A DNA stretch of 64,000 nucleotides from Schmidtea nova (Eukaryota): contig CM097882.1 in NCBI GenBank assembly GCA_044892505.1, positions 163,680,001-163,744,000 on the forward strand. The letters run 5' to 3'. The translations under genes and the position numbers were made by a program. Shown here one piece after another: positions 3,547 to 64,000 of the stretch. The notes below the pieces were generated by a model. It made no database searches, had not been told where the DNA came from, and saw only the letters and a list, made by a program, of their open reading frames with translations. Every line of letters starts with the position of its first letter. Within the stretch, counting starts at the first letter, position 1.

Positions 3547-3816
3547 ACGGAGTCAACTTTGCAATTGGGTTTACGATTGAGAGGTGGGATACAGATGTTT
3601 GTGAAGACTTTATCAGGGAAAACTATTACCCTGAAAGTTGAATCAAGTGACACAATCGAAAATGTAAAAGCGAGAATACAAGACAAAGAAGGCATTCCAC
3701 CTGACCAGCAAAGGTTGATCTTCGCCGGATAACAACTGGAAGACGGACGAACATTATCTTATTATAATATGCAAAGTGAATCTACCTTGCATTTGGTGTT
3801 GAGATTACGAGGAGGA
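3547..3816 (+). pseudogene. UB: Polyubiquitin fragment: tail of one unit (3547-3588) plus a full 76-codon unit (3589-3816) with TAA at codon 48
   Basis: [13 protein letters not shown] | [75 protein letters not shown]. Confidence 0.95.
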
Positions 3817-28806: not shown

Positions 28807-28944
28807 TATAAGATTCATAAAAGAAGCACGCTTTTTAATTTAAAAGTTTTTATTTTCTCTAACACATCATATTTAAACAAATCAAATTGTTTAAAATATT
28901 GTTTTTAAAATAATTGTGTTGAATAATTAATTAATGTTCCAACA
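28807..28944 (-). repeat. 3' LTR (138 bp)
   Basis: TGTTGGAAC...GAATCTTATA, preceded on the minus strand by PPT AAGGGGGAGTTG (28945-28956). Confidence 0.95.
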
Positions 28945-28954
28945 CAACTCCCCC

Positions 28955-30010
28955 TTAAGATTGCGGAGCAAATTCATCAGCTCCAATCCATGGCTTAAGA
29001 CGGTCGATGCTAACATTCTTTATTTGGTCTCCAATTTTGATTTTTAACGTTTTATTGTCATCGGATCTTTCTATAACGTCGTATGGTCCAGTGTACGGAT
29101 CTTCTAACGACTTCCTAAATTCAGCTCGAAGCCACACTTTTTTGCAATTAACAAATAGTTTGCTTACAAAACTATGTTGTTTTGGTTGGCTTGTTTTTTT
29201 GTTACTTAGTTGTGAGTCGATTTCCACTTGAATCGATGCTAAATTGTCTTCGATATTGGTTAATATTGGTTCACTAATAACAAAATCTCCGGGTAATCTG
29301 GCTCGACAACCAAATGTGAGTTGCGCTGCCGATGGAGACGCATTAGACTTCGTGCAGTTTCTTAAACTGAGTAGAATCTTGGGGAGATCATGGGCCCACG
29401 TCTTGGATGAGTTTTCTGATGCTGCTCTTATCGAGTTTTTCATGGCTCTGTGCCATCTTTCTATCTTCCCATTGGATTGAGGGTGATATGCTGTTGTTCG
29501 CTTCCTTTCGATTCCCATTACCTTACAGAAATTGGAGAATTTTTCTGATTCAAACTGTGCTCCTTGATCTGTTATAACAATTTCTGGAACACCAAAACGA
29601 CTGATCCACTCTCTTTCAAACGTTCTTACTATCATATCTGTTGTGATATCATATATAGGAATTGCTTCAACCCATGACGTTCCTCGGTCTATCATAGTCA
29701 TGATATATCTTTTGTTGTTGACGCTCGGCAGAGGACCCACTATATCTAGATGAACTGTGATAAACCTTCCTTTGGTTTCTATGGTACCTAACGGAGCATG
29801 TGTGTGTCTTGTTATCTTTGCACCTTGACATCTTTGACATTGTCTACACCACTCTCTGATGTCACTTTTCATCTGTGGCCACACATATCTCGCTTTGATC
29901 AATTCTATCGTTGGTTTGGATGCTGGATGAGATATGTTATGAATTCTTAGAAATTCTTGATATCGGAATATTTTTGGCAGTACTATTCTGGTCTCCCCCG
30001 TAGAGTTGTA
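28955..30010 (-). CDS. int: Gypsy integrase, separated from RT-RH by a 1-nt frameshift near 30011
   Basis: The frame upstream of ORF 29902 reads STGETRIVLP...HNISHPASKPT, then HLDIVGPLP, ITDQGAQFES, HPQSNGKIERWH and GPYDV. One extra T in the TTT run at 30010-30012 would restore a single pol frame. Confidence 0.9.
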   Translation of the reverse strand, partial: YNSTGETRIVLPKIFRYQEFLRIHNISHPASKPTIELIKARYVWPQMKSDIREWCRQCQRCQGAKITRHTHAPLGTIETKGRFITVHLDIVGPLPSVNNKRYIMTMIDRGTSWVEAIPIYDITTDMIVRTFEREWISRFGVPEIVITDQGAQFESEKFSNFCKVMGIERKRTTAYHPQSNGKIERWHRAMKNSIRAASENSSKTWAHDLPKILLSLRNCTKSNASPSAAQLTFGCRARLPGDFVISEPILTNIEDNLASIQVEIDSQLSNKKTSQPKQHSFVSKLFVNCKKVWLRAEFRKSLEDPYTGPYDVIERSDDNKTLKIKIGDQIKNVSIDRLKPWIGADEFAPQS

Positions 30011-31935: not shown

Positions 31936-32846
31936 TGGTTCTCTCTGTTGTTGTTAAAAGTGTTGTTGTTGTTGAATTTGTTGTTGTTGTTGAATTGGTT
32001 GTTGTTGTTGAATTGGTTGTTGTTGTTGAAATTGTTGTTGTTCATTGAGGATATGTTTGACGGTTCAAGATTTTGATATTTCTCTCTGATGTATTTTTCT
32101 GATCGATAGTTGTCGTTCTGATTTGCATTCCAATCACATGGCGGCTGACATTTCCTCGCCCTATGCCCAAATTTACTATGATAAAAACATAACTTACTGG
32201 TGCTTTTATTCCTCAATTGTTGACGTATTACATTGATTTCTTCCTGTAGTTCCATAATTGTTCTCGTCTTATCTCCTAACTCTTGAGTATTGCAATTTTC
32301 GTGTTCAACTGTCTTTACTGATTGCCGCTTTGATAACATTATTCTGTCTGCTGTGACTGCTAATTTTCGAAGGTCCGTCGTTGGCATCGATAATAGGATG
32401 TCCTGAACAGAGCTTGGTAATAGTCGCATGAACAATTCCCGAGATATAGGACTGTTGAATGGATCCATGGCTGTATCTATTCTTTGTATTTGCCCCGTAA
32501 TGTGCTGAAGTGCTTCTGATGGAGATCGATCTCCAAGGCATTCTTCTCTCATCAATTCTGTTATCGATATTTTTCTTGATAGCTCAAATTCTGCTAGGAT
32601 TGCTTCTTTCAGAGTTGAGTACGGAAGCTCGGTTTCTGAGTCCAATAGATGTTCGTATTTTGATAGCATTGTTGTTGGAAGATTTGAAATTAAATAAAAA
32701 TATTTTGTAGTTTCTTCTGTAATTCTTGATATCTTGAAACTAGCCTCCACTTGTTTGAACCACAGACTCTGGTTCTGAAAAATTGCTGGAATTTTGACCG
32801 AAACATGGTCAACTTGGGAGTTGCTGACACCATTTATAAGATTCAT
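31911..32846 (-). CDS. gag: Gypsy Gag
   Basis: VKIPAIF...LWFKQVEASF...IT...KY; CFYHSKFGHRARKCQPPC knuckle; Asn-rich C-terminal repeats. Confidence 0.92.
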   Translation of the reverse strand: MNLINGVSNSQVDHVSVKIPAIFQNQSLWFKQVEASFKISRITEETTKYFYLISNLPTTMLSKYEHLLDSETELPYSTLKEAILAEFELSRKISITELMREECLGDRSPSEALQHITGQIQRIDTAMDPFNSPISRELFMRLLPSSVQDILLSMPTTDLRKLAVTADRIMLSKRQSVKTVEHENCNTQELGDKTRTIMELQEEINVIRQQLRNKSTSKLCFYHSKFGHRARKCQPPCDWNANQNDNYRSEKYIREKYQNLEPSNISSMNNNNFNNNNQFNNNNQFNNNNKFNNNNTFNNNRENQGNERRFH

Positions 32847-32972
32847 AAAAGAAGCACGCTTTTTAATTTAAAAGTTTTTATTTTCTCTAACACATCATAT
32901 TTAAACAAATCAAATTGTTTAAAATATTGTTTTTAAAATAATTGTGTTGAATAATTAATTAATGTTCCAACA
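32835..32972 (-). repeat. 5' LTR (138 bp)
   Basis: Same sequence as the 3' LTR; followed by AA and PBS TGGTGTCAG (9-nt match to the tRNA-Leu-type PBS). Confidence 0.95.
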
Positions 32973-34560: not shown

Positions 34561-35838
34561 GTTTGAATTTTCATAAGTATCTCATGCCAACCTTAAATTA
34601 GGCAGTTTAGTAAAATAATATGAATTATGTAGCCCGCAACACATTATCATTTATATGAATGGCTAAACCTAGGAAAAAGGTAGCATACTACTGGTATAAA
34701 GTAAAAGAGATTAATTTTAAATCATTCTTATTTAAGATTGAGTTGTAAAATAATAAAATGTATGAATGAACTTTAATTTATTTACTATTTTTTAAGAATA
34801 TCAGAATATTCTAAAAAAAAAAATTTTCCAAAAAATTGTCCTGTTAAGACAATAAAACGAGACGTTCTACATGAAATCTGTCCATATTTGTCTAGTTTAA
34901 AAATATACCAATATTCACAATTTGTCGGAAAACCTGAAATATGATGTAACTTTTATTGTTTTCAATAAAATCCTCATTTTAATTCCAATAATTATTAAGG
35001 GGAAATTGTTTTTCATCTTATAGAAAGACATTTACTCTCATAATAATCAAAAGAAATATGTTACATATGTTGCCTCTAAAAGAGATGATATGCATTTGTC
35101 TGAATATAAATTAGATCTAAATACATTTAAATGCGGGTAGATAATATATTTTAAAATTTTCTTGTAAAAATATTTAATAATGCACTCTTTTATCGATCTA
35201 TTTAAAAAAAAAATCAATATTATCACGCTTTATAATTTTTGCTATTTCATTATCATAAAATAAATTCAAATTTATAAAAATAATATTCCATTTTCGATTA
35301 TTATTTGAAATTGCAATGGTAATTGAGATATACAGCAGAAACATTGAAATATCTTAAGTAAAGCAGTCTATTTATTCATGAAATTTTTAAAATTGACCGA
35401 ATTTGATTTAAGGATTTTATTATTATTTGCTTTTGTGAGCATTTTGCTTTTGGTAATAATATTTGGATAAATTTGTTAATTTTAAAATTAATAAATTTTA
35501 AAATAAATTTGTATTTGATCAATTTAACTTCCTGGTTTTGCTGATAATAATTCAATTTTATATTTTTGTTGTTTTACCAGTCTTTATCAATCACCATCAT
35601 TTAAAGTTTAATTAACTATATTTTAAATAGTTTGTCATCAATTTATTTGTATATTTATGATATTATTTCTATCAATAATTATTTGATATCTATGAATTTG
35701 ATTATTCATTATTTTCTAATAATCTGATATCTTCAATGTAATTAATATCACAAAAGGTCGAACAATGACTTTAAGAATACATATTACTAAAAAAATTATT
35801 AAAAACATTAACACCAAATGATCAGAAGTAGTCAGTTT

Positions 35839-36258
35839 GGTAAAGGTAGCGTATGGGAGGGCCAATTTTTAAAATTAAATAATTAATAAAAATTTATTAA
35901 ATAAATTGATATTATATTAAAAATAAGAAATATTTATATTAAACTTTATTATAAATAACCATGCTGTTAAAAGAATTATATGCAATTACAAACGATGCAA
36001 AAGAATGCATAACGTTTTGCGAAAATAATGGCCTTATTAAAGGTCCACCTTTATGTGAAATTTGCGGAAGGAACATGAAATTGGTAGCAGAAAACAATGT
36101 ACTGTATAAATACCTATACGAATAAATACCTATAATACTTGCTTATTTTCTTTATTGCATAATTTAAGACTTATTTTTAATATAATATCAATTTATTTAA
36201 TAAATTTTTATTAATTATTTAATTTTAAAAATTGGCCCTCCCATACGCTACCTTTACC
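35839..36258. mobile_element. Merlin (IS1595-like) non-autonomous element
   Basis: ~88-bp TIRs starting GGTAAAGGTAGCGTATGGGAGGGCC; perfect 8-bp TSD GTCAGTTT; internal CENNGLIKGPPLCEICGRNMKL zinc-ribbon relic. Confidence 0.8.
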
Positions 36259-36693
36259 GTCAGTTTCGTTGAATTTTAACTTTGAACGCTGTTCCCCTTG
36301 AAATGACAGTGATTAAAGCCTAAAATTCATTTGTACCTTTCGAAATTTATTGAAATTTGAAGATAAGATCAATTTTTTAAATAAAGTAAACCAAGATCTG
36401 TTTTTGTGCCATTTTAAAATAGTGCAGTTCGTACAAAAAATATGAAATTATTTGAAGCTTAAACAATTTTACTCACTTAATAGTGATTAATCATTATTTA
36501 AATTTTAAGAAATGTCAAATAGTACAGAAAGAAAACTGAAATATTTTTAGAAACCAAAATTTTAATATTTAACTGCTTAGGAAAAGGCGAAAATCTTACA
36601 GCAGTTAGTAAGTGTTTTAATTTAGGAGAATAAATAATACGAACTATAAAAAAATCAGTGATTTCCGGTACAGCAGTAAGTGATAAAGTTGAC

Positions 36694-36726
36694 ACACTTG
36701 ATAAAGGATGTGCCGAAATATCGTGT
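36694..36726 (+). ncRNA. Minimal type I hammerhead ribozyme, U3-A8 variant (stem II mismatch)
   Basis: ACAC-TTGATAA-A-GGA-TGT-GCC-GAAA-TAT-C-GTGT. Confidence 0.55.
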
Positions 36727-37528
36727 ACTTAACAACCATAAAACCCAAAAACAAAGTTTGATCTATGGTCATATGACAATGAAAATTATTGATACAAAAA
36801 AAAGATCAAATGTGAAACAAAAAGATAATTACGATTAAATTTCATTTTGCGAATTTTAGTCTATTTTAACTTATTTATTAATTTTGGTGCAGTTTCTAAA
36901 TGGTAAGGGACAGATCCTTAATTGTACATTGAAATATGATTTTTGTGCAATTTTTTTAATAAGATTTTTTGAGAAACGTGTCTATTGCAAAAAAATTTAA
37001 AAAAAGATTGGGATGGACACGAATTTTTTAAGTATGTTCAAATAAACACTTGAAAAGGGCTATGCTAAAAATTAGTGTAGTTTATGTAAAAATTTGATCT
37101 AGTCTAAAAAAATTTAAATTTCAGAAATAGAAAAGGAAATATCAAAGGTAGAAATAAAAGATGTTAGTGTGTTAAATAGTATTTTTTCCGCTCTGTGAAA
37201 GTAAGATAATCAATAAAAATATTAATATCATAATTATCTTTTTTCACCTTTGATCTTTTTTTATTATTATTATCAATAATTCTCATAATGATGACTATAG
37301 ATCAAAATTTTTTTTATAAACAATAACACAATATTTCGGCACAGCCTTTATCAAGTAATAAAGGCTGTGCCGAAATATTGTGTTATTGTTTATAAAAAAA
37401 ATTTTGATCTATAGTCATCATTATGAGAATTATTGATAATAATAAAAAAATATTAATATTAATAATAATTATTATTATCAATAATTCTCATAATGACTAT
37501 AGATCAAAATTTTTTTTTATAAACAATA

Positions 37529-37561
37529 ACACAATATTTCGGCACAGCCTTTATCAAGTGT
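37529..37561 (-). ncRNA. Mirror copy of the U3-A8 hammerhead
   Basis: Opposite arm of the perfect palindrome centred at 37570. Confidence 0.65.
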
Positions 37562-37578
37562 GTATTTCTCAGAAATAC

Positions 37579-37611
37579 ACACTTGATAAAGGCTGTGCCG
37601 AAATATTGTGT
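37579..37611 (+). ncRNA. Minimal type I hammerhead ribozyme, U3-A8 variant
   Basis: ACAC-TTGATAA-A-GGC-TGT-GCC-GAAA-TAT-T-GTGT: stem I ACAC/GTGT, stem II GGC/GCC, palindromic ATAT stem III. Confidence 0.65.
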
Positions 37612-37721
37612 TATTGTTTATAAAAAAAAATTTTGATCTATAGTCATTATGAGAATTATTGATAATAATAATAAAAAAAGATCAAAGGTGAAAAAAGATA
37701 ATTATGATATTAATAATAATA

Positions 37722-38937
37722 CACTCATACCTCGCTATACGGCTGCTCTTTATACGGCTTTTCGCTATAACGGCCTACTTTAATTACGGCACTTTTTCGA
37801 TTTACGGCCTAAAATGTTTCGTTATACGGCCAAAAAAAGTGTGAAAAAAGGTGCGAAAAAAACATGAATGTACATATTTTCTTGCGTTGTCGCCACAGTG
37901 TAGGTGCAATAGCCACTTTTAAGGCATATTATTTACGTAGAACATTTCGAAAACTTATAAACGTAACTGATGGTGAATCTTCGATTAAACAATTTTGGAA
38001 AAACTACAACATTAAAGATGCGTTAGACAACATTAGCGAATCGTGGAAGGAATTGAAATCAACCACAATGAACCATGTTTGGAAAAAAATGTGGCCAGAA
38101 TGCATAAAAACTGAAGATCCTGAAGTTGATTCTCTTACTGAAATAAGACAAAGCATATTGAACCTAGCGAATGATCTTGGTTTTGAGGATTTGGAAGAAG
38201 GTGATGTGCTTGATTTGCTAAATGCTGATAGAGAACCCCTTTCACACGAGGAACTGGTCTATATCGAAGAGGACCGATCACTTGATGAGGAGCCAGAGCC
38301 TGATGTATGTAAACAGCTAACCTTAAAGAACTTGTCCAGTGCGCTTTCTCATTTCGAACAAGGAATAAAAATCCTTCTTCAAAGTGATCCAGACGTAGAA
38401 CGCAGCGCTAACGTTTTTCGCGGAATTAACTCAGCGATTAACTGTTATGTAGAACTGCAAAAAGAAGCAAGAACCAAGGCAAGACAAACAACGTTGGATA
38501 AATTTCTTAAAAAATCATCTAAATCTACAACAGCGGAAAATGATGATGACATTATATTGCAGCTTACCGATTCTTCATGTTCGTCTTCAGATTAGAACTC
38601 TGTCTTTAAAAATTTTAATTTATGTATTTTATTATGTATCAATTTATTAATTTCGATTTTATTAATGAATTTGTTTTTGTTTTTTTTTATTTCAGTTTAT
38701 TGTTATATATAATATGTACTTGTTATTTATTTTTATTTTATATGTAAGCATTTTTAAATGAAATAAAAAGAAAAAAATGCATTTTAAACTAAAAACTACG
38801 TTATTTTATAAAAAATTGGAACCAATCCTATTGAATTTATATGGAATTGTATCAAAATATTTGATTCGTTATGCGGCGTTTCGCTTTGCGGCCAACTTTC
38901 CTGGAACGTATCTAGGCCGTAAAGCGAGGTATGAGTG
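37722..38937 (+). mobile_element. pogo/Tigger internal-deletion derivative
   Basis: TIRs CACTCATACCTCGCT(A/T)TACGGC with TA TSDs. ORF 37864-38595 keeps only the transposase C-terminal part (ATFKAYYLRRTF...WK...I...W). Confidence 0.9.
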
Positions 38938-50433: not shown

Positions 50434-53400
50434 TCAATATATACCGGTGGATGTAGATGGCTGATCACGCAATTGCTGCTCCATCCTCACCAGGTATTCG
50501 TGGAGTCTGCGCGATTCAGCCGTTTCGCCATCATCGAACTCCTCATCATCAAATCCATCAGGTTCGGCTGGGGTAATTGTTTCATCATAACCTATAATAG
50601 TATTTTCTACCCTATAGTGCCCATATGCAAAACTTTTGTTTTTCGACACCCAATTGCGTTTGTCGTCGTTGCAATTGAGTGCCGTTTTTGTATTTTTGAC
50701 ACTATAAACCTGATGATTTTTTGAGACTATACGAAACTGCGGGACTTTATATATTTTACTTGTTGTGTAACAGTCTAGGTAATGCGAATGGTTAAGTCCC
50801 GCAGTAGCCAAACATATGCCCTTGGCTTTTAAACACTCCTCGTCGCCAAGTAAACTATAGCATTTAGGGCGAAGAAAAACCCACTCTTCATATTTGAAGC
50901 CCTTATTTTCGTCCTTAAACTTTCCTATAACAGAATCCAAATTACGCGAAAATAAGGGATGGCTCGGGTCATAGTTCGAAGTATCTAAAAGTTGATCCCT
51001 CACCATAGCGGGCAAAAGAACAGAAAGCCTACAATTAACAATTTCAAGAAAAAAGGAGTCTGTGTCTCCTGCTGCAATATTAATCTTACAATTAAACTCT
51101 TTCCTATATTTCTCTAACTCTATATATTGTAGTTCATACATTCTTAGTTTAGACAAGTCCAAGACCGTCTGTCCTATATAACTTGGCCTATCTAAACACA
51201 CAGACTCCTTCCTCAAAAGCACTGATATAAGATTATGGTCAATTTTCGTTGATTTCCTAAAATACGGGCTACTGCTATATGTTATTAATTTACGTGCCGA
51301 ATTGCACAGTCTTAAATTTATACGTTTTTTCAGATTCTCTACGGTTTTGCCGTAGAGACTGTTATTTAATAACTTAAAATAATTTTTGTCGAGTTTCGTG
51401 GTGGAAGAAGCTCTCAAAGCAGTATTTGTATCAACGTATTTCTTAAAAAGCCTACTTTGATGGTATTTAATAGCTCGATGTATTTTGGTCACTACAACAC
51501 CTAACCTCAGAAACATCTGCAAAAGTCGCCAATGAAGCACATAGTTTTTCTTAGGCATGTGCGTCAAAAGCAACTTATGCACCTTCGAACCTGGCACACA
51601 CATCTTTTCAGCAGCTACTGGTAAATCATCCAGTAAGTCGTGAATAGATGCCGGTATCTCTAAATCCACTTCTATGGTATAACCATAGTTAAGTGAACAT
51701 AAATCAACCGTAGTGCACTCCAACAAGATGTCATGAAGCAAGTGGTCATCCGTGACCCAAACAAAGTCCCCGTCCGGTAAGTTTTGTGAAAGAGCCCAGC
51801 CATACAGATTATTAATATCTATATACAGCAACTCTGTATCTGGGCCTGATTTAACATGATGTTTATTAACGAAAGTGAGGCCGCCCCTGATTCCACCCTC
51901 AAAAAAGTTGTACATCTCCATATCTTGCAAAAGCTCGATAGGAGATTCCAAAGTCATTAATGCAGAACACCAGCTCATACCCGGTATACCCAAAAAATTC
52001 AACGGCTCAAGTTTATTATGAGCTATACTCTTTGCACGAAATTGTTGAAAATAATCAGCCAAAAGAAATATGTCGAGTTTCATGTAAACCATCATATAAT
52101 CAAATAATGAGGTACACGAATTTTCTCTCCATATTTCTTTTGCCTTTTCATAATCAGCAATTTCGACACCTTCCCAAATCGGCGGCAATTCAGTGATCGA
52201 CCTCAAGACAGATAAAGATGTAGCAACATCATATGGAAAAATTCCCTTACTGGTGATAATAGTCCCGGTAAATTCCGAAGAAGTAAGAGGAAAAGATGTT
52301 AGAGTTTTTACTAAGTTATTTAGAGATTCGCTGGCAAATTGATACGAATCGATAAACTTCACTGTGAGTGATCCGATTCTCGCAAAAAGACTGAGAAACT
52401 TCTCACTGGTGACAGGAACACAGCTAATGTTCCACGATTCGTATTTAGAAAGTCCGAATTTGAGGATATGATGTAAATCATATCCCCGTAGATTATGAAA
52501 AACTATCGGCAAAGTGTGTCGAATTTGCCTATTTATATTACATTCGTTGCATGCTGCTCCTAGGTAAGCACCTGTAAAGTGATCGTGGTCTTTAACAGGA
52601 TTTACTAAAATATTTTCACACAAGTAGCAGTGTGTTGCATAAGAAAAATGTTGCATGTCTTCGTAGGTTAATATTATTTGCTTATTTTTATTTGCGAAAT
52701 AATAGGGCGTTACAATTTTTCGACTTATATTTTCAATTTCTTGCAGGAATTTGGCAACGCAATCAAGGCCATAGAAGGATTTATATAATTTAACCCCAGT
52801 GAAATTATTAATAAGTAATAAACCCGCAGAAATGGGCAAATGTTTTTGGTAATATTTCGAGTCGCGAGGTAAAATTGCCTCAAAATCGGCATAAATTACA
52901 AAAGGAGGGGTCACTGTCTTCGTCCAGTCGCTAAAACGTAAAAATTTATTATTAGGAAGTGTATACAAAGTTGTGCCTATTTGGTTGGCATCACAAAGAC
53001 CACGATGTCTCTTGAATGTATCTGAATTACGGAAGCCATGCAAGCACCTAGGACACCATTTATTATAAATTCTCACTGGGGTTATGGCCGAAGTTTTACA
53101 ATTTAAAAATTTGTCGATGTTATATATTCCTGCGTAATGAAATTCTTTTTTATTTTCAATTAAAAGTAGGTTTATGACAGTGCCCCCCACTACTTTACTT
53201 TTATAGATAATATCGATGAATGGATGTTTCATCACTTCACTTTTATTAGTCAAGTCAACTAACGCATTTTCGTCATACGATAATACATTAATTGCATAAC
53301 CGGGGTTTGATAATTCAAATCTGCTAATGTTACTTAGCTTCATTGGCATATCATTTATATCAAAGCGAAGTGATGTCAAGTTATAAGATGTTGGTAATTG

Positions 53401-54482
53401 TCGAATTTCATCATCAACCTGATTATAATTTTTAACAGACAAGACACTATAAAGGAAGCAAAGATTGTCGGTGTTATTGACATTGATAATGCAATCCTTA
53501 TTAAGTAAAGATTTCGGTGTTGAAAGAAATTTTTTACCTCTTAATCTGGTAATTTCTGAGTATTTCGTTATTACAAAACTAATATATTCTATTTTATTTA
53601 ATTTCCAATTTGAACCCTTCTCGTTCATTTGGATAATTTTTTCGTTGAGATGTGTAACGCCCTCATCAATGAAATCAGTCGTCCATACACGCGCTGAATT
53701 TGAAATGACAAAAGACTGGTATTCATCGTCTTTCATCATTTCAACCTTTATACAAAATTGGATCTTAACAGATTTCATGGCAGAAATAATCGATGTTAAT
53801 TTTTCTAGTAAAAGAGATGGAACAGAAAGATTATTTAAATTTAAATGTGCAACATCCATCTTAACGATGATGTGCGAATTATTGAGATCAGAATCAACAG
53901 ATATTAACCCTAAACCTATTTGCTTAACAGAGTAACAGTTTAAAACTATAGGGTCTATTTCCTCTTCATCTGACGAAATAACAACCACATCGTCATCATC
54001 GTCACTTATATCAATAACCTCAAATTTACCTATTTTATTTGGTGTTTCACATACTGTTTCTGTATTTGTTCTTTTTAATAATTTGGGAACACATTCCACA
54101 TTATTGATTATTTGGTTGGGAACACAGTCCACATTGCAAGAGGTTGGGACAGAGTCCACATTAATAATTACTTGTTTGGGAACGCAGTCCACATTACTTT
54201 TTAATAATTTGGGAACACTGTCCACATTATTTTGCTTATTACTATTTTGTTGAATGTTTTTCGCGAAAATTGAATTAAATAAATTCTTTTTAGAACCATT
54301 GAATTGTGTTAAATGGTTTCTGTGATTATTATAAAATTGTGTGTAGGTGCATGTATCTAAAGTTTTGCATGTAGGGCAAATAAGATAGAAAATACTATTA
54401 TATTTGTAATAATAGTACTTTTCCATAAGACTATGACAGTCATTATGAAAAGTACTATTACAATAAGAACTGTATAGTTTAC
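50434..54482 (-). CDS. polB: Protein-primed family B DNA polymerase, main exon (exon 5)
   Basis: Exo motifs YADFE, HNLRGYD and YMKLD; KGIFPY; Pol motifs YIDINNLYG, KLLNNSLYGK and AGDTDS; C2HC finger; EndoVII-like insert. Confidence 0.97.
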
Positions 54483-54599
54483 CTAAATTTATCAAAATAT
54501 CAATATTTTATTATAAAAAATAATGTTATAAAGTATATAATAATTATTATACAATCGATATTGAATTTAAACTATAAATTCAATATCGGATGTATAATA

Positions 54600-55260
54600 A
54601 TGTCATGTATCATAAAAATTTTATAATTTATCATTTCTCATAAAATATCTTTTCTCATAAAATAAGATTGTCATAAAATCGATCATTATAATAAAATTTT
54701 CATAGTTTCATAGTCATAAAATCAATCTTTTTAATAAAATTTCATATTCATAAAATCAATCTTTTTAATAAAATTTTCATAGTTTCATTGTCATAAAATC
54801 GATCATTATAATAAAATTTTCATAGTTTCATTGTCATAAAATCAATCTTTTTAATAAAATTTTCATAGTTTCATTGTCATAAATTCGATCATTATAATAA
54901 AATTTTCATAGTTTCATTGTCATAAAATCGATCATTATAATAAAATTTTCATAGTTTCATTGTCATAAAATCAATCTTTTTAATAAAATTTTCATAGTTT
55001 CATTGTCATAAAATCGATCATTATAATAAAATTTTCATAGTCATAAAATATCTTTTCTCATAAAATTTTCATAGTCATAAAATCGATCATTTTTAATAAT
55101 ATTTTCATAGTCATAAAATCAATATTTTTAATAAAATTTTCATAGTCATAAAATCGATCATTTTTAATAATATTTTCATAATCATAAAATCAATATTTTT
55201 AATAAAATTTTCATAGTCATAAAATCAATATTTTTAATAAAATTTTCATAGTTTTATTGT
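54600..55260. repeat. AT-rich tandem array (~33-43 bp units) inside polB intron 4
   Basis: Unit aaaatcgatcattataataaaattttcatagtttcattgtcat and variants. Confidence 0.9.
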
Positions 55261-55425
55261 ACAATATTTATTTATAATTACTATTTTATTATTTAATAAC
55301 TTTGATGTTATAATTAAATAATAAAATAGAACTTATAAATAAAATTTGTACAATAAAAGTTAATTTATAAAAAAATTGAAATAAATAATTTATAAATAAT
55401 TTATAAAAAATAAATAAAATCATAC

Positions 55426-55941
55426 ATTTCTGCCGACCATTATAGCGGTCATCTTCTGGTGCAGCAACATCCCTAATAAGGGGCATGGGTTCATCCCTAA
55501 TAAGGGGCATATCAGCATCATCCCTAATAAGGGGCATATTTTCATCCCTAATCAGGGGTATATTAATTTCGGAAGTTTCTTCGGCTTTAAATTAATCATT
55601 TAATAATAATAAATAAAAGAATAAAAGAAACAATTACCATCGATATCAACGTTTAATCTTTCGTTTCTGCTAGCTGCATAGTATTGAGTTGTTAATTGTA
55701 CATTTGTTACTGTAATAATAATAATAATAACAATAATGAAATTAGTATTTTTTAAAATTTTTACCATTTTCATTCTCTTTTTCAGTATCTTTTTCGGTAT
55801 TTAAATTGGTTGAAATCTTCATGTTGAGATTCATTTTTCCTATAATTAATTTGTTATAAAATTTATAAAATAAATAAAATAAAAAATACCAAATCTATTC
55901 CTACGGATATTTTCTTTAATCGATTGAGAAATGTTGTTCAT
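55426..55941 (-). CDS. polB: Upstream coding exons 1-4 of polB (55941-55890, 55839-55765, 55709-55638, 55584-55426)
   Basis: GT-AG introns of 50, 55, 53 and 943 nt, all phase 1. The joined frame is open into the main ORF and gives 1468 aa. Confidence 0.7.
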
Positions 55942-56432
55942 TGTTTAATAATAATAATAATTTGAAATTTTTAAAAGGTTTGTTTAAATTGTGACGAAAT
56001 AATGAAAACATATAGTATATATCACGTTTATTACAAACTTTATTCACGAACCAATCACAAGCGAGATAGGGTAGAAAAAGTATGTGTGCACACTGAGTAT
56101 GTATGTTAAAAATCTCTCACCAAGTATGTGTGTTAATAATTCACTCACCAAGTATGAATCATGTCTTTGTTATATTGCACGATGCATGTCGGATGCAACG
56201 ATACAAAGACACTACGTGACTAAAGTGTTTATGAAATATCTTATGGGTGTAGATGCAGATGTGAATACACCCAAGTCGATTTATATGTGAAATAATTGAG
56301 TGTCTGCATGCGTGCTTGCATGCAATTTCTTTATGATTATCGAAAAGTATAGCTAGATGGATGTTAATCTGCAAATTGGATGTGAATTCTGCAAGTTTAT
56401 AAAAAATAATAAATAAAACACGAATAATACAT

Positions 56433-56834
56433 TTATTGTTTTAAATAATCAATTACACCAGACAAGCATCCTTTATATGCACACATACTATGATCTTTAT
56501 ATGGACATGAGATATTTTCTGGAACATCTTCAAATTCTTTAAAATTATATTTAATTAATCTCAATTTCGGGAAATATTTCTTCAAAACTTGCAACTTTTC
56601 ATTATCTGTAACATAGAATATAGCTCCTTTATTTTCAATATCATCCATTATACATTTTGGGCAAAAATAATCTTGTCCTTCAAACGATTCTATACGATCA
56701 GGCCAGAAAGATAAATCACTGTATATATAATACAAGGGTGTGAAAATACTATTTACATTCATAATGCATAATTCCTTAATAATTGTTCCTCCAATATCAT
56801 TATAACCGTACATATCAATAAAATAACAAGTCAT
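56433..56834 (-). CDS. Small Polinton accessory protein, possibly RNase H-like/DEDD fold with a C-terminal Cys/His cluster
   Basis: FIDMYGY...IIKELCI N-terminus and CPYKDHSMCA; intact ORF inside the gene block. Confidence 0.55.
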   Translation of the reverse strand: MTCYFIDMYGYNDIGGTIIKELCIMNVNSIFTPLYYIYSDLSFWPDRIESFEGQDYFCPKCIMDDIENKGAIFYVTDNEKLQVLKKYFPKLRLIKYNFKEFEDVPENISCPYKDHSMCAYKGCLSGVIDYLKQ

Positions 56835-56866
56835 TTTTTACAATAACATTTATTATACTAAATTGT

Positions 56867-57243
56867 TTATAACATTGATTTTAGCCATGCAAGGCAATGT
56901 TGTCCACAAGTGATTGTTAATGGATGTTGATACCGAATTCTATTATACACAATAGGTTTACCAATAGTTTGCAATTTTCGAACAAGTAAATTTGGATAAT
57001 AATATCCAAAGGGATCAAATACATGTATTCGATCCGGTTTCACGTAAACCGCAATCCAATGTTCACCACCCAAAGTAGAAGTGTGAGTATTTACAATGAT
57101 GGCTTGATTCATTTTCAAATAAGGAATTTTATCTAACGGAAAAACTCCAAGAAATTGGTTTCCCAATAGTTTTTTACCTTGTTGTAATACCTGAATAGAA
57201 CTAATTAAAAATAAATAATTATTCAATTAAAAACTTACTCCAT
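56867..57243 (-). CDS. pro: Adenain-like cysteine protease (5-nt exon 57243-57239, 38-nt intron, exon 57200-56867)
   Basis: GVFPLD, GEHW, FDPFG and YQ....CGQHC motifs; ATGGA|GTAAGT...TTAG|TTCT gives MDSIQV. Confidence 0.88.
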
Positions 57244-57296
57244 AATTATAATATTAATAATAATAACTTTGGTTATTTATACTGTTTGAGCTCTGC

Positions 57297-58517
57297 TCAA
57301 ACCAATACTGTTCGATTGGCAGTAATTTGTACTTCATTTTCAAACAATCCATATATAATTACATGAACCGGTTCATCAATGGGTTTTGCAAACTTTATAT
57401 CTAGCCTTAAATTACCGTTTTGTGGGATTTGACTTTGATTCAAATCGAAATCGGGAGCCAGAACAAATGTAAAGAATGGATATTTTGCTTTAAATTCATC
57501 CAGACTTATACCACAATTCAAGTTTTTATCCAAATATCCTAAATTTCGGACAAGACTTTGCATATATGTGGCACTAAAATTATCATTTTCAAAATCTTGA
57601 GTATAAGTTTCTCGATAATCGGTATTTTTCGATAATGATAATGAAGTTACATTAAAGTGTTTGAATGAAGATGAAGATTCAGCATATGATCCGTTATATT
57701 GATTTTCAGTTTGAAAAGCCACAAGAATGAAATTAGGCATTCTTCTATCTCCAAATATTTGCTCCTTGTAAAATGATGATGCACCTTTCCCAATAGCAAA
57801 CGATACGATTTCTTTGGATTTTATCGGATAAATTGCATGTTTGCTATTTAAACCAATTTGATGACCGGCCAAAACTGAAGATTCACACCGAACTCTTCTT
57901 ACCATTAATTTAGCGTCTACTAATTGGAGTATTGGTTTCCCAGTTGCCGATTTCAGTGATAATGCAGAATCAGATCGCTTCAATCTAATATGTACATTAA
58001 CTCCGGGAAGTAAGTATTTAGGTTGATCCATAAAATCAAGTTGTAATGATGAACACATGTTAAAAAGTTTCGATCCCTTGATCCACTTTTTTCTATCGTC
58101 ACTTGCACCATATCCCATTGGAGTAAGACAAGTTTCTTTTGAATCGTTCGTATAATTTAAAATAGTTTCGATTATTGCCTTGTGTGCATATGTATTGTTT
58201 CCACCCTCGATTTTTATATTATTAAATCCAAGAATCACATCTTTGAAAAGTGTATGAAACAAGTAATTATTAGGTACTACATCACTCGCATCAACTAATT
58301 TATTTTTATCTTTATCTACAACTTTGACCGTAACGGATAATAACGTATCGTTCAAATCCAAATATTCGGTTGCCGATCCATTAATGTAAAATTCAACATC
58401 ATTTCTACTATCTGTAATAGAATTCATTGGAAACACATCTTCAAACACCCCATATTCAATAACTGCTTGGGGGCTTGGTCGATCAAAAATACATAATTCA
58501 GATTTACCGCAAATCAT
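57297..58517 (-). CDS. MCP: Major capsid protein (double jelly-roll, PY/hexon-like)
   Basis: 406 aa; KSELCIFD, EYLDLNDTLL, YLLPGVNVHIRL, FKHFNV and GNLRLDIKFAKP motifs typical of Polinton PY. Confidence 0.9.
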   Translation of the reverse strand: MICGKSELCIFDRPSPQAVIEYGVFEDVFPMNSITDSRNDVEFYINGSATEYLDLNDTLLSVTVKVVDKDKNKLVDASDVVPNNYLFHTLFKDVILGFNNIKIEGGNNTYAHKAIIETILNYTNDSKETCLTPMGYGASDDRKKWIKGSKLFNMCSSLQLDFMDQPKYLLPGVNVHIRLKRSDSALSLKSATGKPILQLVDAKLMVRRVRCESSVLAGHQIGLNSKHAIYPIKSKEIVSFAIGKGASSFYKEQIFGDRRMPNFILVAFQTENQYNGSYAESSSSFKHFNVTSLSLSKNTDYRETYTQDFENDNFSATYMQSLVRNLGYLDKNLNCGISLDEFKAKYPFFTFVLAPDFDLNQSQIPQNGNLRLDIKFAKPIDEPVHVIIYGLFENEVQITANRTVLV

Positions 58518-58894
58518 TCTTCAAATATTGTTCCATGACCTTTCATTCGTTTGTTTATACGTCTTCGTTTACGTCTTGGTCCTACTGGTACAGGTTCCGG
58601 TTCATTTTTTGTAAACATATTTGTAATTGAAGGAATCATTTTTGTTACAGTAGGTATAGCTTTATTAACTGCGGCCAAAGCATTTGTTTTCAATGATGGT
58701 AATATTTTATTATCTTTCATGATAACATCCTTGGCAGTATTGAATCCAAAACTACCTAATCGCTTAAGTAGTGGAAGTGCAAATCTACCAATAGTTTTCA
58801 ACCAACCTGATCCATACTGTTTACCTACAAAATACGGTAATTCGCCACCAGTTTGGCTATTACTGTACAAAGAAACTATATCTGGATTACTCAT
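58514..58894 (-). CDS. Basic virion/core protein with QxGG and QYGSG plus amphipathic helix
   Basis: QTGG, KQYGSGWLKTIGRFALPLLKRLG and PRRKRRR. Confidence 0.7.
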   Translation of the reverse strand: MSNPDIVSLYSNSQTGGELPYFVGKQYGSGWLKTIGRFALPLLKRLGSFGFNTAKDVIMKDNKILPSLKTNALAAVNKAIPTVTKMIPSITNMFTKNEPEPVPVGPRRKRRRINKRMKGHGTIFEE

Positions 58895-59939
58895 GATGTT
58901 TTCGAAAATGTAGAGTCAAATGAGTTTTCGAATTTTTTGGAAAGTTTATTAAATTACCTTTATCATCTCGGATATTTATTTCTATATTGTTTATACAGGA
59001 TGTTGAAACAGTTACATACATTGGATTTTCAACTTGTATTTGAACAACCTCATCCTGTTCATATTTTTCAATCCATACCGATTTCAGTAAAGGAACCAAT
59101 GAATCTCCAACAATTATAGGTTCAATAATGTTACTGTAAATGAACATTTGCTGATGAAGTTTAATTATTTTCGGTTTATTTATTCCAACAGTGAAGCTTC
59201 CATTTTGAGCATATGTTGCTTTCAATAAACCCAATGTTTTTACTAGGTTATTATCAAAAGTTATTTCGCTAACATCTGGATTCAAACTGAATTTGAAGTA
59301 AGTATCATCTAACAATTCCACCGACTTAAAAATACTTGCACAATTTAGAATTAAATATGATTTCATTTCATCCAGTTTCGATATGTATAAATTATCGGCA
59401 AATGTATGGATAAATACAGAATCAGCCTTATACTCCATCTTTAATCTAATATTTTCAGTAACTGGACCATCTATACCATAATATGGTAACGGTATCTTGT
59501 ATGTATCTGTAGGACTTACAATACTCTGCTTCGTTAATCCCATTCTTTTCGCCATTGCCAAAGTATCAAATGTTATAGTGAAGGGAAAATGATCACAGGT
59601 AAAATAAATAGATTGCCTATCACTCAACATTTGAGCAATATCATCGGCAGGATTAGATGTGTCAACTTCACAAAATTGATTGTTAATAATCAAATTTTTA
59701 TATTTTGTATGTATAGTTTTCTTTTTGTATCGAATTTCAGCTTTACTGTAAAATGGAAATGGATTATACACAAATGTAAAGTCTAAGAGAGCGACTTCCC
59801 AAATCCCGTCCAAATACATTGGATTTTGGAGATTGACCATGAAATTACTTGCTGTATTATCTGGATGTATGTCTGGACAACTGTTGCTAGGTAGAATCAT
59901 ATAAAAATTCATTTTACTAGGTTTTTTGACGATATCCAT
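58887..59939 (-). CDS. mCP: Minor capsid protein (penton, PX-like)
   Basis: FYMILPSNS...NTASNF...WEVAL; C-terminal FIYSNIIEPIIVGD...LL and IEINIRDDKG...LHFRK. Confidence 0.88.
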   Translation of the reverse strand: MDIVKKPSKMNFYMILPSNSCPDIHPDNTASNFMVNLQNPMYLDGIWEVALLDFTFVYNPFPFYSKAEIRYKKKTIHTKYKNLIINNQFCEVDTSNPADDIAQMLSDRQSIYFTCDHFPFTITFDTLAMAKRMGLTKQSIVSPTDTYKIPLPYYGIDGPVTENIRLKMEYKADSVFIHTFADNLYISKLDEMKSYLILNCASIFKSVELLDDTYFKFSLNPDVSEITFDNNLVKTLGLLKATYAQNGSFTVGINKPKIIKLHQQMFIYSNIIEPIIVGDSLVPLLKSVWIEKYEQDEVVQIQVENPMYVTVSTSCINNIEINIRDDKGNLINFPKNSKTHLTLHFRKHHE

Positions 59940-60953
59940 GATGGTTCCTTATATCCATGCCACTTGACATAGTATTGTTTATCCTTACCTACCATTTTAG
60001 TTTTCAATATTTTTTGAATTCTAAATATTGTCGGTGGAGGTATAACTTGTAATTCTTGTTCATAGAATTTCCCACTGACTATATTGTTATCAGAGTCAGA
60101 AATAGTATACATGACAGGATTCTGGACTGTGTTGACCTTCGATATTTTAAATACCTCATCACTCCAATTACTATCAAAATTTTTAATGAATGGCGATGCA
60201 CTAATTTTACTAATTCGAACATGATCACCTATTTTATATTTCGGTTTCTTGATTATTGTATCACTCACGATATTTTCAGTATTAACTACTTCTGCAGGTT
60301 TCCTGCCATTTATACCTCGATGAGCAGAATGATTATAACTATGGATCATTTGTGGTAAAACATTAATCCATGTTTTATTACCTTGATGTACAAAATATTT
60401 TTTGAGCCGATCTCGTAATGTACGATTAAATCTCTCGACATGAGCGGCTTTGAATTGCGAGAATACCGAATAATGATTGATTCCCTTGATAACTTCCTTG
60501 ACTTTACTGTTGTAAAATTCCTTACCTAAAAAATATTAAATCAATAAATTATAATTAAAATTTACCCAAATCGGTTTGTAAATTTGTTGGACGATCCTTT
60601 TTCATCATTGCTTTGATCGCGATTGCCATATCATTACCAGATTTCGATTTTACTGCGATTGCCCGCGCAAAACGACTGTAAACATCAATACATGTTAAAA
60701 TATACTTGTATCCCTTGTTAATTTTTGAATACGGAATCATTTCCATCAAATCCATTTGCCACAAATCATTGATTCTATACGTTTTATATGATCTAGTTGG
60801 AAACCGTTTCAGCATCGGTTTGTTTAGACTGTATGCAAGTTGCCCCGATAACCAGCTTTGTGTCTGTTGTTTCGACTTCTGTACTTTTTTCCTTAACTTT
60901 TCGACTCCACCGAAACCGGCTTCGTCTTTCGGGTTCGTCCAGATCTTCTCCAT
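59909..60953 (-). CDS. int: Retroviral-like (rve) integrase with SH3-like region and chromodomain; 2 exons (60953-60566, 60525-59909), 334 aa
   Basis: WQMDL, CIDVYSR, TDLG|KEFYN across a 40-nt intron, VERFNRTL; YYVKWHGY...SWI chromodomain. Confidence 0.93.
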
Positions 60954-61008
60954 TACAACAAGAAGATTTAAAGTTTAAATTTAAATTAGGTAATGATTGA
61001 CCCATTGT

Positions 61009-61545
61009 TTATGACGTTCTTTTTCCCAATAAACCAGCACCACCTAATAACGATAAAGCTAGGGGTAATAATGCAGCAATAAACCCTCCTTGTTGTTTAT
61101 ATATTATTTTACGCATAAGTTTTTTATTTTTTGTTTTTACAAGTGATAACAATGGTTTTTTATGCTTGTTCAAAACCCGACGATTAGAAGGAGTTAGATT
61201 CATTTTACCTCGTACGACTTTAATTAAAATAGCGAGTAAATCATCAATAACGTAATTGGGAAACGACTGAAGAATACCCATTCTTCTAGCACTGGGGGCT
61301 TTTAGCAATGCATTAAAGAACGGAAAACTCCGATGATGTATTTGTTTAGGATTAGATTTCAAAATAGGGGGAATTTGATTTTGTTTGGGAAAATTATCCA
61401 TAATTAGTTTTTTCGAAGGAGTATAACTTGTTTTAGAAACGGGTTTCGAAACTGATTTCTTTGTTTTCTTTGTTTTCTTTGTTTTCTTCATTGTTTTTCT
61501 TGCCTTTATCAAGCGCTCAAACTTTACTCTAGATTTCATTAACAT
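61009..61545 (-). CDS. Basic protein with adenovirus pX-like C-terminus
   Basis: Lys-rich N-terminus; QQGG-FIAALLPLALSLLGG resembles adenovirus pX GG-ILPLLIP. Confidence 0.7.
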   Translation of the reverse strand: MLMKSRVKFERLIKARKTMKKTKKTKKTKKSVSKPVSKTSYTPSKKLIMDNFPKQNQIPPILKSNPKQIHHRSFPFFNALLKAPSARRMGILQSFPNYVIDDLLAILIKVVRGKMNLTPSNRRVLNKHKKPLLSLVKTKNKKLMRKIIYKQQGGFIAALLPLALSLLGGAGLLGKRTS

Positions 61546-61565
61546 GATTACTACTGTAAATATAT

Positions 61566-62189
61566 TTAACTTTGTTTATAAACCATGGCTCCTTCCTTGT
61601 TAAAAATATCAGTTCTAACTCTTAAATCATCACTGCATTGTTGCGTAAAATCCAAGAAAAGATATCCATGAGGAGATTTTGTAGCATCCTGAAACGCATC
61701 AATCAAGAAATTCCGATTAGAGGGGTATGCTTGTCTTGCCAGAAAATCAATAACTGTTGCATCACGAGGATTTTTAAAAACAACAAGATATTGAACATTT
61801 AAATTACGAGTTCGATGACTACCACCCTGATGAAATAAATTCTGAGTAATAAAAATAACTGTAACACCTTTGTGTCTAGCGATTTTCGTAAATAAATTAT
61901 TAAAATCCTTTTCTTTATTTGCTTCTTGATACAAGTCATCAATAATAATCACATCCCCTTCTCTTAATCTAGATGACCAGTTTTTATCGAAACCTTTTAT
62001 GATTGTCATTTTTATTTTACAAAACTGATCTTGAGTCATACCGCTTTCGTCGTCAGCACCCCTATGCCAATAAATTTTATTAAATTTTGATTTGAATAAT
62101 TTAGATTGTAATAATTTACAAACAAATAAAGTTTTTCCGCTCCCGCTCGGACCGACAATTTGATAAACTGCATCATTTCTTAATTCCAT
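61566..62189 (-). CDS. A32/FtsK-like genome-packaging ATPase
   Basis: Walker A GPSGSGKT, Walker B IIIDD, ARH arginine finger, ITQ motif. Confidence 0.93.
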   Translation of the reverse strand: MELRNDAVYQIVGPSGSGKTLFVCKLLQSKLFKSKFNKIYWHRGADDESGMTQDQFCKIKMTIIKGFDKNWSSRLREGDVIIIDDLYQEANKEKDFNNLFTKIARHKGVTVIFITQNLFHQGGSHRTRNLNVQYLVVFKNPRDATVIDFLARQAYPSNRNFLIDAFQDATKSPHGYLFLDFTQQCSDDLRVRTDIFNKEGAMVYKQS

Positions 62190-62278
62190 GTTTGTAATTA
62201 TTTATTAGTATTATTATTGTTTATATTGATTAAAATATTAATTATCTCTTTGTTGTTAGATTTAAAATATTTTTAATA

Positions 62279-62746
62279 ATGATTAGAAACATTAATTACA
62301 AGGGTAAGACAGATGTGTCGCACATGATATTTCCAACTGGGAAACCACAGCAAATTGTAGATAGAAGTGGAAAATACCCAATAATATACTTTAAGACAGG
62401 CAGATATAGAATAATGGGATGCAAGGAATTTATTAGTGATGAAAAAGTAAAGTCTCACGATTTAACAATACAATCGATAACTGTGACTGCAGATTTAGGA
62501 TTTATTTGTAATTTAAATGAGTTATCTAAATTGATTCCATGTGTTTATGAACCAGAATTATTTCCAGCTTTAAGATATACAAAATATAATCCAATGTGTG
62601 TCAATATTTTTGCTAGTGGTAAAGTAGTCATATTAGGATTAAAAAATAAAGACTATGCTAATATAGTTGATAATATTATTAACGATATAAAATCAATTAT
62701 AGAAGATAAAGCCTTTGTTGATTTCATACTAACATGTGACTCATGA
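62279..62746 (+). CDS. tbp: TATA-binding protein (TBP) homolog encoded by the element
   Basis: Repeat 2 IQSITVTADLG...YEPELFPALRY...VNIFASGKVVILGLK matches the TBP core. Repeat 1 IRNI...IIYFKTGRYRIMGCK is shortened. Confidence 0.88.
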   Translation: MIRNINYKGKTDVSHMIFPTGKPQQIVDRSGKYPIIYFKTGRYRIMGCKEFISDEKVKSHDLTIQSITVTADLGFICNLNELSKLIPCVYEPELFPALRYTKYNPMCVNIFASGKVVILGLKNKDYANIVDNIINDIKSIIEDKAFVDFILTCDS

Positions 62747-62923
62747 CTGCAATATTCATGCAATGGAAATGCACGATTCTGATTGGTCGAGTGTGTATCG
62801 ATAGAATAAAGACATGTTGTGCATACTTTATTCTTATTGGTTGAAAGTTGTTCATTTCGTACATGATGTGTGTTTCTATCGTATATATACTAAGAACATT
62901 CGTTCATAATTTAGATTTTAAAA

Positions 62924-63485
62924 ATGTGTTTAAAAGAAACTATGTTAAAAAGTGGTAAGGATTTTAATTAATTCTTTTCAATTTTAATATAATTTCTTTT
63001 TAGAAAAATTAATGAATGTCCTATATGGAAAGCTGGAGGAGATGTTCCCGAATTTAATGACATCCCTGACTTATACGGCACCAGAACTCTTTCCGTATAA
63101 GATTCAGGTGCTGACTGGAATTGATGTCAATAAAATCATCTTGGATCATCGGGCAAATAATCTCAATGAATTGCCAGTGGTAGCCGAGCACTTTCTCTGT
63201 GCATATCAGTGTGGAAATTGCGTGGAGAGGATCCGCCGATTCAATATTTGGCTCCTCAGAAACGCATTGAAAGAATTCGAGAATCAAAACCTCGAAACAA
63301 TTGAGGAAGAAGAAGATGCAGATATGAAGGAGTCCTGGCCAAATTCGACTCCGGATCAATCTGATTGCCCAACTTTAGATGGGCCATATCCTATCGAATC
63401 GGATGAGCCAATGGAGTCTCCCGAATCTCCAGATTGTGCGGAATGCCACCGTAAGGCAGAGGATTGTGATCCGTCAGACATTTAA
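62924..63485 (+). CDS. Unknown protein with acidic/Pro-rich tail (exon 62924-62954, 49-nt intron, exon 63004-63485)
   Basis: AGT G|GTAAGG...TTTTAG|AA keeps the frame into ORF 63012. Confidence 0.6.
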
Positions 63486-63499
63486 ATGTTGTTATTTTT

Positions 63500-63680
63500 T
63501 AGTTTAATGTCATTTTAGTTTGGTTATTTTTTAGTTTAATAAAAGTTTTTTAATGATTTTAGTTTTTTATTGATTTTAGTTTTTTAGTGATTTTAGTTTT
63601 TAGTGATTTTAGTTTTTTAGTGATTTTAGTAATAGTTTTTTAGTAATAGTTTTTAAGTATTAGTTTTTACTTGACTTTAA
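63500..63680. repeat. Short AT-rich tandem repeats (gattttagtttttagt)
   Basis: Read directly from the sequence. Confidence 0.8.
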
Positions 63681-64000
63681 GTTATTATTTGAATTTAATT
63701 AATTATTTTTAACTTTAAGTAATTAGTATTAAACTTTTTTATTTACTAAGATTAAAAAATAGTATTTGAATAAAAATTATTGTGAAATAAATACATATTT
63801 TATCTATATTTTATTATTGTGATATAAATAAATACATATTTTATCCACTAACAGAACCTTACTATCAGTACATTAGTAGCAGAACATCTTTTGTTATGGT
63901 TTTTATGTGCAAAAGCTCATTACTTGAACACACATACATACACACACACTTACAACAAAGACATGCATAACGCGTGCAATACAAATGCATGATTGTGATT

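Follow-up and report, generated by a model that had tools for sequence, protein, structure and literature searches.

The terminal-protein/polymerase gene of a Polinton/Maverick element in Schmidtea nova probably consists of five exons that are joined constitutively, the first four of which would supply a leader ahead of the conserved protein. The element belongs to a clade in which short introns of the spliceosomal type, as predicted from alignments, are an established trait of the core genes. The latter conclusion is drawn because of the polymerase introns of related elements, together with the integrase and protease introns of the window (the whole stretch of 64,000 nt analysed here), and it is independent of the leader. 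Within the gene model, confidence differs from part to part: introns 1-3 and splicing into the acceptor at 54482 are very likely real, and we infer the link that joins exon 4 to this acceptor. When a regulated version is counted in as well, the five-exon model appears highly probable.

The element and the introns of its core genes

By the features tested, the element is a Polinton/Maverick, of which only the left terminus falls in the window (Table 1); at that position, 48179, the contig runs (four, from one study, of unrecorded kind) present a step in depth. Its integrase matches PF00665 (E 9.5e-09) and carries a chromodomain (E 4.4e-05), and a packaging ATPase of the A32 type (PF04665, E 1.1e-06) and a cysteine protease of the C5 adenovirus type (PF00770, E 2.4e-06) are encoded as well. 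The ORF at 58517-57297 is capsid-like: it resembles, with an atlas feature score of 0.98, clusters in which 15-30% of the members carry the DJR-like PF21738, and ORFs 53-58% identical to it are present in three related elements. No Pfam match of its own was obtained for this ORF. The taxa in these clusters, together with the genomic context, point to an animal as the probable host.

The left terminal region (48200-48990) is densely filled with arrays of TGACTCA and TGACGTCA, in units of 13 and 11 nt, and with three 120-nt repeats. We take these two motifs to resemble AP-1/CRE sites. A TATAAA(C/T)A-like motif lies 39-44 nt 5' of five ATGs of the element (57243, 62189, 61545, 56834 and 58517), and 7 of 11 relatives have it 38-56 nt ahead of the start of the polymerase. 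In addition, a TBP-like gene was found at 62279-62746 on the plus strand (PF00352, E 6e-15), with counterparts of about 48% identity in the related loci L002 (11357-11779) and L009 (10321-10764); relative to the ATPase gene it is inverted in the window and not in these two loci. Judging from these matches, this is a Polinton clade with a TATA-binding-protein homologue of its own. In L002, the segment 6518-8547 holds two tandem paralogues of a 350-aa gene, whose label, minor-capsid-like, follows from its position.

In the contig runs the element family is highly repeated, and the element is embedded in AT-rich DNA with retrotransposons. Elsewhere in the window, an ORF at 2956-3732 (plus strand) combines a fragment of Hsp90 (E 1.2e-30) with a ubiquitin domain (E 2e-16) and adjoins a DUF1759 ORF. 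An LTR retrotransposon-like unit (RT, RNase H, integrase and DUF7041) occupies 28805-32972, between two identical 140-nt direct repeats. Finally, 35800-46550 contains nested inverted repeats, with arms of up to 308 nt, and several N runs, a cluster that probably represents non-autonomous DNA transposons and assembly gaps.

Table 1. Positions of the features discussed, in window coordinates; gene-model features are predicted.
Feature	Position	Strand	Remarks
Polinton/Maverick element	48179..64000		left end AGTAG at 48179; right end past the window
Candidate weak promoter, TATA-like 12-mer	55981..55992	-	51 nt 5' of ATG 55941
Exon 1	55890..55941	-	52 nt, start ATG
Intron 1	55840..55889	-	50 nt, phase 1, GC 0.06, donor 8.8 / acceptor 7.8 bits
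Exon 2	55765..55839	-	75 nt
Intron 2	55710..55764	-	55 nt, phase 1, donor 5.7 / acceptor 2.8 bits
Exon 3	55638..55709	-	72 nt
Intron 3	55585..55637	-	53 nt, phase 1; 4-nt deletion at 55590 in other copies
Exon 4	55426..55584	-	159 nt, GC 0.44, four (I/M)PLIRD repeats
Proposed intron 4	54483..55425	-	943 nt, phase 1; least certain link
Tandem arrays	54667..55252		43-nt units (8.9 copies) and 35-nt units (7.2 copies), most of intron 4
Exon 5	50434..54482	-	Cys/His motif, disordered linker, terminal-protein-like domain, vOTU, exonuclease, polymerase
Cys/His motif, putative zinc-binding	54310..54482	-	C-x6-C-x4-H-x2-C ... CxxC ... H-x2-H; first Cys split by the junction
Alpha/beta domain in terminal-protein position (inferred)	53563..53904	-	model residues 193-306
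vOTU-like region	53139..53460	-	between invariant C350 and H457 (alignments)
Integrase intron	60526..60565	-	40 nt, phase 1; the integrases of L002 and L009 are uninterrupted and lack it
Protease intron	57201..57238	-	38 nt, phase 2, two bases after the ATG

Relatives of the polymerase were gathered by a metagenome scan, from which the best 80 of 342 loci were used, 19 of them being 39-53% identical to the window. In the tree, the window and these 19 close loci form one group with full support (100/100), L009 being identical to L014. The window itself stands on a long branch and has no supported sister, so that no order of intron gains is claimed. Introns were called with a spliced aligner; an earlier heuristic had missed known introns and given GC-rich false calls.

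Within the best 80 of 342 loci, the alignments prove introns in the polymerase of 4 of the 19 close relatives (L006, L007, L008 and L013). There are two in each, at the same two positions, all of them GT-AG and phase 1, 43-48 nt long and with an AT content of 0.83-0.89. An intron shared by these four loci, at query residue 324, lies near the border of the terminal-protein-like and vOTU regions. The aligner also made calls in 24 of the 61 distant loci. Only L075 contains short AT-rich introns there, four in number and located elsewhere; the calls in the other 23, at an AT content of 0.40-0.78, were discarded as likely insertions of coding sequence.

Ahead of the conserved polymerase, a splice model trained on 19 introns, none from the leader, predicts introns in 7 of 14 relatives and none in the other 7. 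These N-terminal introns, 21 in total and one of them also part of the training set, are all 40-53 nt long, and 17 are in phase 1 (14 of 18 without the duplicate locus L009). L016 is particular in having five introns at 1590-2243, all 3' of where the Cys/His motif begins; one lies inside the motif and four are in phase 0. The splice sites of relatives, which the earlier note had proposed as a check, thus bear out short and mostly phase-1 introns, and they offer neither a long intron nor any comparable arrangement. Taken at the level of these predictions, runs of same-phase mini-exons in a variable N-terminus are normal for the family and need no regulatory explanation. The exon skipping that had been read from the symmetry of the exons finds no footing in this regard: phase 1 is an ordinary family trait, and skipping of exon 4 would replace the first Cys of the Cys/His motif by Gly.

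The protease intron of the window recurs at the same place in all four relatives in which the start of the gene is present. Two long "introns" in the alignment of the L009 integrase were dropped, as they proved to be bridges to an unrelated ORF. On the plus strand, a candidate 49-nt phase-1 intron at 62955-63003 would connect, in frame, a short ATG exon at 62924 to a 157-aa ORF at 63012; it has no confirming homologue.

The polymerase gene model and its leader

Recomputation of the coordinates from the ATG at 55941 yields an open chain of five exons with 1469 codons including the stop, that is, 1468 aa, in which all four GT-AG gaps are in phase 1. Every size given in the earlier note was reproduced exactly, and so were its four (I/M)PLIRD repeats, which are located in exon 4. 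Its description of the gene as hidden from the list of ORFs holds for the first 138 of the 1468 residues; the remaining 1330-aa ORF, 54426-50434, was already listed. Exons and gaps differ in composition, with a GC content of 0.27-0.44 vs 0.06-0.16. Each of the four small exons is open in only one of the three frames, which is the frame the chain requires, and retention of any of the four gaps leads to a stop after 7-45 codons. Upstream of the start, the TATA-like 12-mer scores 5.5 bits with a matrix derived from the polymerase promoters of 11 relatives, and is the top match in 56430-54380; the relatives themselves score 2.8-16.

With the start fixed at 55941, the splice model places the five-exon structure first, with a score of 191.8. 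The runner-up (188.9, only 2.9 bits below) splits the long gap by two tiny AT-rich exons. Introns 1-3 are present in all eight top parses and the 943-nt intron in six. The model has no intergenic state or 5' boundary, and the start is therefore not fixed by it; when left free, the parses add exons 5' of 55941. Three of the four leader donors fall below the weakest donor of the training set, and two of the four acceptors below its weakest acceptor. None of 40 base-shuffled versions matched the score of the five-exon parse (the best reached 96.8), and 23 of 91 host segments did so, all of them with a GC content of at least 0.26 and richer than the leader region. Since host segments also attain it and GC content confounds the comparison, the total parse score is not discriminating.

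Among the matches listed from the contig runs for 47500-64000 (15 of 809), no joint corresponding to a proposed intron was found. Exon and intron sequence occur together in one contig, over 55650-55853, which means that this run, at least, behaves as DNA. The summed depth is lower over the leader than over the polymerase, which was not counted as evidence. Indels carried by other copies at 55590 and 55369, among the matches listed (12 of 68), lie inside proposed introns. The one at 55369 is a 1-nt deletion that accounts for the larger share of depth in all four runs and shifts the frame of read-through from exon 4.

The predicted leader comprises 119 residues, is polar, acidic and of low complexity, and lies outside every conserved domain; 116 residues counted include 23 acidic, 17 basic and 16 Asn residues, and no Cys or His. 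Exons 1-4 had no homologue among the best 80 of the 342 loci (best E 0.21), and none of 224 candidates from a comparison of exon 4 with longer proteins was homologous. Other N-termini of the family are built along similar lines: in the database protein P0068, the same Cys/His motif follows a different stretch of about 70 residues, likewise acidic, and L007 and L008, which are devoid of this motif, have comparable polar leaders on phase-1 mini-exons.

The conserved part of the protein is consistent with the identity proposed in the earlier note, a precursor of terminal protein and polymerase. The motifs YADFE, FHNLRGYD, YIDINNLYG, KLLNNSLYGK and AGDTDS were located, which we take to be the exonuclease and palm motifs of a protein-primed family B polymerase. 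PF03175 was detected in 7 of 15 homologues, and the window ORF itself gave no match to it at E 1. A search of PDB sequences with the polymerase profile returned no matches, and neither the single protein nor the alignment matched any of the viral contigs searched. Structure modelling covered the 461 residues with which exon 5 begins. It predicts a folded module around the Cys/His motif, at residues 13-82 and with a pLDDT of about 55-80, and after it some 110 disordered residues, the alpha/beta domain and the vOTU region. With Foldseek, the alpha/beta domain retrieved nothing at E 0.001, and its weak hits (E 0.017-0.09) are mostly Y-family polymerases. These hits are consistent with the little-finger origin that has been proposed for Polinton terminal proteins in the main text of 10.1101/2024.03.18.585575, where cleavage by the vOTU between terminal protein and polymerase is hypothesised as well.

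The 54482 junction, the proposed long intron and competing readings

The long link is best judged from the Cys/His motif, whose form in relatives is C-x5-8-C-x4-5-H-x2-6-C ... CxxC ... H-x2-3-H. Its first Cys is present in all 10 copies from nine related loci, and in 24 of the 27 pattern matches among 40 database hits; as for the three matches without it, two are anchored on that Cys and one is at a cut end. The window's copy of the motif starts 5' of the first in-frame ATG; read without splicing, the frame lacks a Met and aligns Gly with the first Cys. That an acceptor at 54482 is needed is therefore supported, since the conserved coding sequence starts ahead of the first ATG in frame, and splicing at the 5' end of the gene, as put forward in the earlier note, is supported too. 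The last base of exon 4 would complete the Cys codon at this junction, and, among the four leader donors, it is the donor of this exon alone that yields Cys as the split codon; a T before the GT is found in 3 of 24 phase-1 donors of relatives. Moreover, just one of the 51 ATGs in the long gap provides a stop-free phase-1 first exon, which yields Ser and not Cys, and, out of 14 AGs 3' of exon 4, none but 54483 leads into an open frame longer than 27 codons. The restoration of Cys, together with these exclusions of ATGs and AGs, is the strongest support for the proposed long link.

As regards the Cys/His module itself, a long-protein search with this region matched none of 12 candidates, and an atlas search produced only RING-like leads, all of them below 0.9; a RING identity was not adopted. 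Small database proteins contain the motif in two or three copies, and L003 carries a second copy in a gene of its own, located upstream at 61-735, in which the motif is followed by an acidic, helical-looking region and which ends at a splice donor. Database proteins of this family start at the downstream Met or stop at intron boundaries. In L010, an AT-rich stretch with a good acceptor (274-316) directly precedes the polymerase ATG, and is perhaps a GC-AG intron or one in the 5' untranslated region.

At 943 nt, the proposed intron 4 is about 20 times the family norm (the 27 tabulated family introns measure 38-53 nt), and tandem arrays account for 62% of it. The acceptor at 54483 is preceded by 13 AGs, one of which, at 55332, scores 6.1 vs 4.1 bits for 54483, and AATAAA occurs just after exon 4 at 55290, 55272 and 55258. 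The 12 nt before the 54482 acceptor agree at 10 of 12 positions with the start region of L019, a resemblance noticed post hoc, and 35 other acceptors agree at 9 or fewer. L016, whose gene order is the same, has a spacer of 557 nt between the upstream gene and the polymerase start. We read the resemblance and the spacer as traces of an origin by gene joining, in which case the long intron may once have been an intergenic spacer, captured when two genes fused.

A decayed start in this copy would leave the same trace, so that a separate-gene alternative is retained: exons 1-4 would form a small spliced gene of their own, ending by read-through or at the 55332 acceptor and polyadenylated near 55250-55290, the polymerase start would have decayed and the AG at 54483 would be incidental. 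We regard this as unlikely, though it is the leading competitor. All nine relatives with the motif in the polymerase gene start with a Met a few residues ahead of it; small upstream genes exist in L003 and L012; and the likeness of the acceptor to a start region, the AATAAA sites, the good-scoring AG after exon 4 and a TATA-like 12-mer at 54573 (4.3 bits) all agree with two genes. Such a history, however, would need several independent hits to the start region, yet the 4-kb ORF and the neighbouring genes are free of stops, and it would make a coincidence of the Cys-restoring phase and last base of the exon 4 donor (that base occurring in 3 of 24). The alternative tails would be short and AT-rich (GC 0.08), no AG lies at the family-normal distance of 38-55 nt from the exon 4 donor, and the deletion at 55369 breaks the read-through frame in the larger share of depth of every run.

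The weak sites, the repeat-filled length of the intron, the competing acceptor at 55332 and the AATAAA sites would also suit a switch, by alternative splicing or early polyadenylation, through which some cells make a leader-only product and others the full polymerase. AATAAA is nevertheless expected by chance at 8-16% GC, the tandem arrays account for the length of the intron without any function, and relatives have no long intron or comparable arrangement; we consider the production of both forms improbable. The same low standing is given to the wider proposal that an upstream spliced gene was captured as the leader, that the repeat-filled intron gates replication through a splice/polyadenylation switch and that the lineage is spliceosome-dependent. 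A control role for the long intron, as put forward in the earlier note, is not supported. Least probable is that the 54482 acceptor serves another upstream exon (the 19-nt piece 54571-54553, or an exon set starting 5' of 55941, where the free parses run) or that translation begins without the leader, either at 54426 or from the TTG at 54495. The donor at 54552 also yields Cys and is used in the runner-up parse, but it scores only 1.1 bits, with an in-frame stop 19 nt upstream and no ATG, and a start at 54426 would lose three conserved residues of the Cys/His motif and has no TATA-like site (-1.2 bits).

Taken together, our results favour the constitutive five-exon gene. According to this model, host RNA polymerase II would transcribe the gene from just upstream of 55941 and the host spliceosome would join the five exons, presumably in a constitutive manner, to give a 1468-aa precursor composed, in order, of the leader, the Cys/His module (probably zinc-binding), the disordered linker, the terminal protein, the vOTU protease, the exonuclease and the polymerase. 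Cleavage by the vOTU would leave the leader and the Cys/His module with the terminal-protein fragment. The leader would be a lineage-specific and replaceable N-terminal addition, acquired when a small spliced gene lying upstream fused with the polymerase gene, whose former spacer and start region thereby turned into intron 4.

Implications and comparison with known systems

A clade with short host-type introns in polymerase, integrase and protease has to rely on nuclear transcription and splicing; the protease intron lies at the same place in five divergent elements. Pipelines based on ORFs would score such elements as broken or truncated. Being fast-evolving, these elements could serve for tracing the gain and loss of introns and, possibly, the fusion of genes by intronisation of a spacer. 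The leader, for its part, looks lineage-specific and is of modest importance in itself, unless regulation of the long intron is established; if the switch were true, the full-length terminal-protein-polymerase, and hence replication of the element, would be confined to cells that splice the long intron.

According to the relevant parts of PMC8097293, the ORFs of intact vertebrate Mavericks lack introns, and uninterrupted intact ORFs are taken as a criterion of activity; for nematode Mavericks, the corresponding parts of 10.1101/2022.07.12.499685 report intronless core ORFs, with introns in cargo genes only. The core gene set is the same here, whereas polymerase, integrase and protease are interrupted, so that the intronless core ORFs of these accounts, a descriptive and not a definitional property, are not a feature of this element. 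In the main texts of PMC8502044 and 10.1101/2024.03.18.585575, term counts gave no discussion of spliced core genes. The literature covered contained no account of spliceosomal introns in Polinton core genes besides introners; founding papers, Repbase and supplements lay outside its scope, and an earlier notice in these is possible.

The nearest published case, as far as the text of 10.1101/2025.03.18.643946 goes, is that of dinoflagellate maverick-polinton-like elements, which carry transposon-derived introners, mostly gained after integration. Both systems have intron-type sequence inside polinton-like elements. Unlike the introners, the introns described here are short and AT-rich, and some of their positions are common to elements that are 48-60% identical in protein.

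In adenovirus E2B, according to the pertinent part of PMC11304566, a common set of 5' exons is spliced onto one or another of the alternative terminal exons, so that pTP and pol each have an mRNA of their own. The likeness that the earlier note saw in this leader extends to small 5' exons and a long-distance splice onto an ORF for a protein-primed polymerase. The analogy fails at the acceptor: a shared leader of the adenovirus type was rejected because, of the 14 AGs that follow exon 4, a single one leads into a long frame, a fused ORF that encodes both terminal protein and polymerase. Additionally, no homologue of the 119-residue leader was detected, and the relatives here differ freely in their same-phase mini-exons, in contrast to E2B.

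In comparison with animal Polintons and adintoviruses, as presented in the main texts of PMC8502044 and 10.1101/2024.03.18.585575, the element shares the rve integrase with chromodomain, the A32-type ATPase, the C5 protease, the AG terminus and, putatively, a capsid gene of the double-jelly-roll type, and its polymerase likewise has a candidate terminal-protein domain and vOTU-like Cys/His residues before the exonuclease and palm motifs. It differs from them in the spliceosomal-type introns of its core genes, in an extra Cys/His module and a predicted spliced leader placed before the terminal protein, and in its TBP-like gene.
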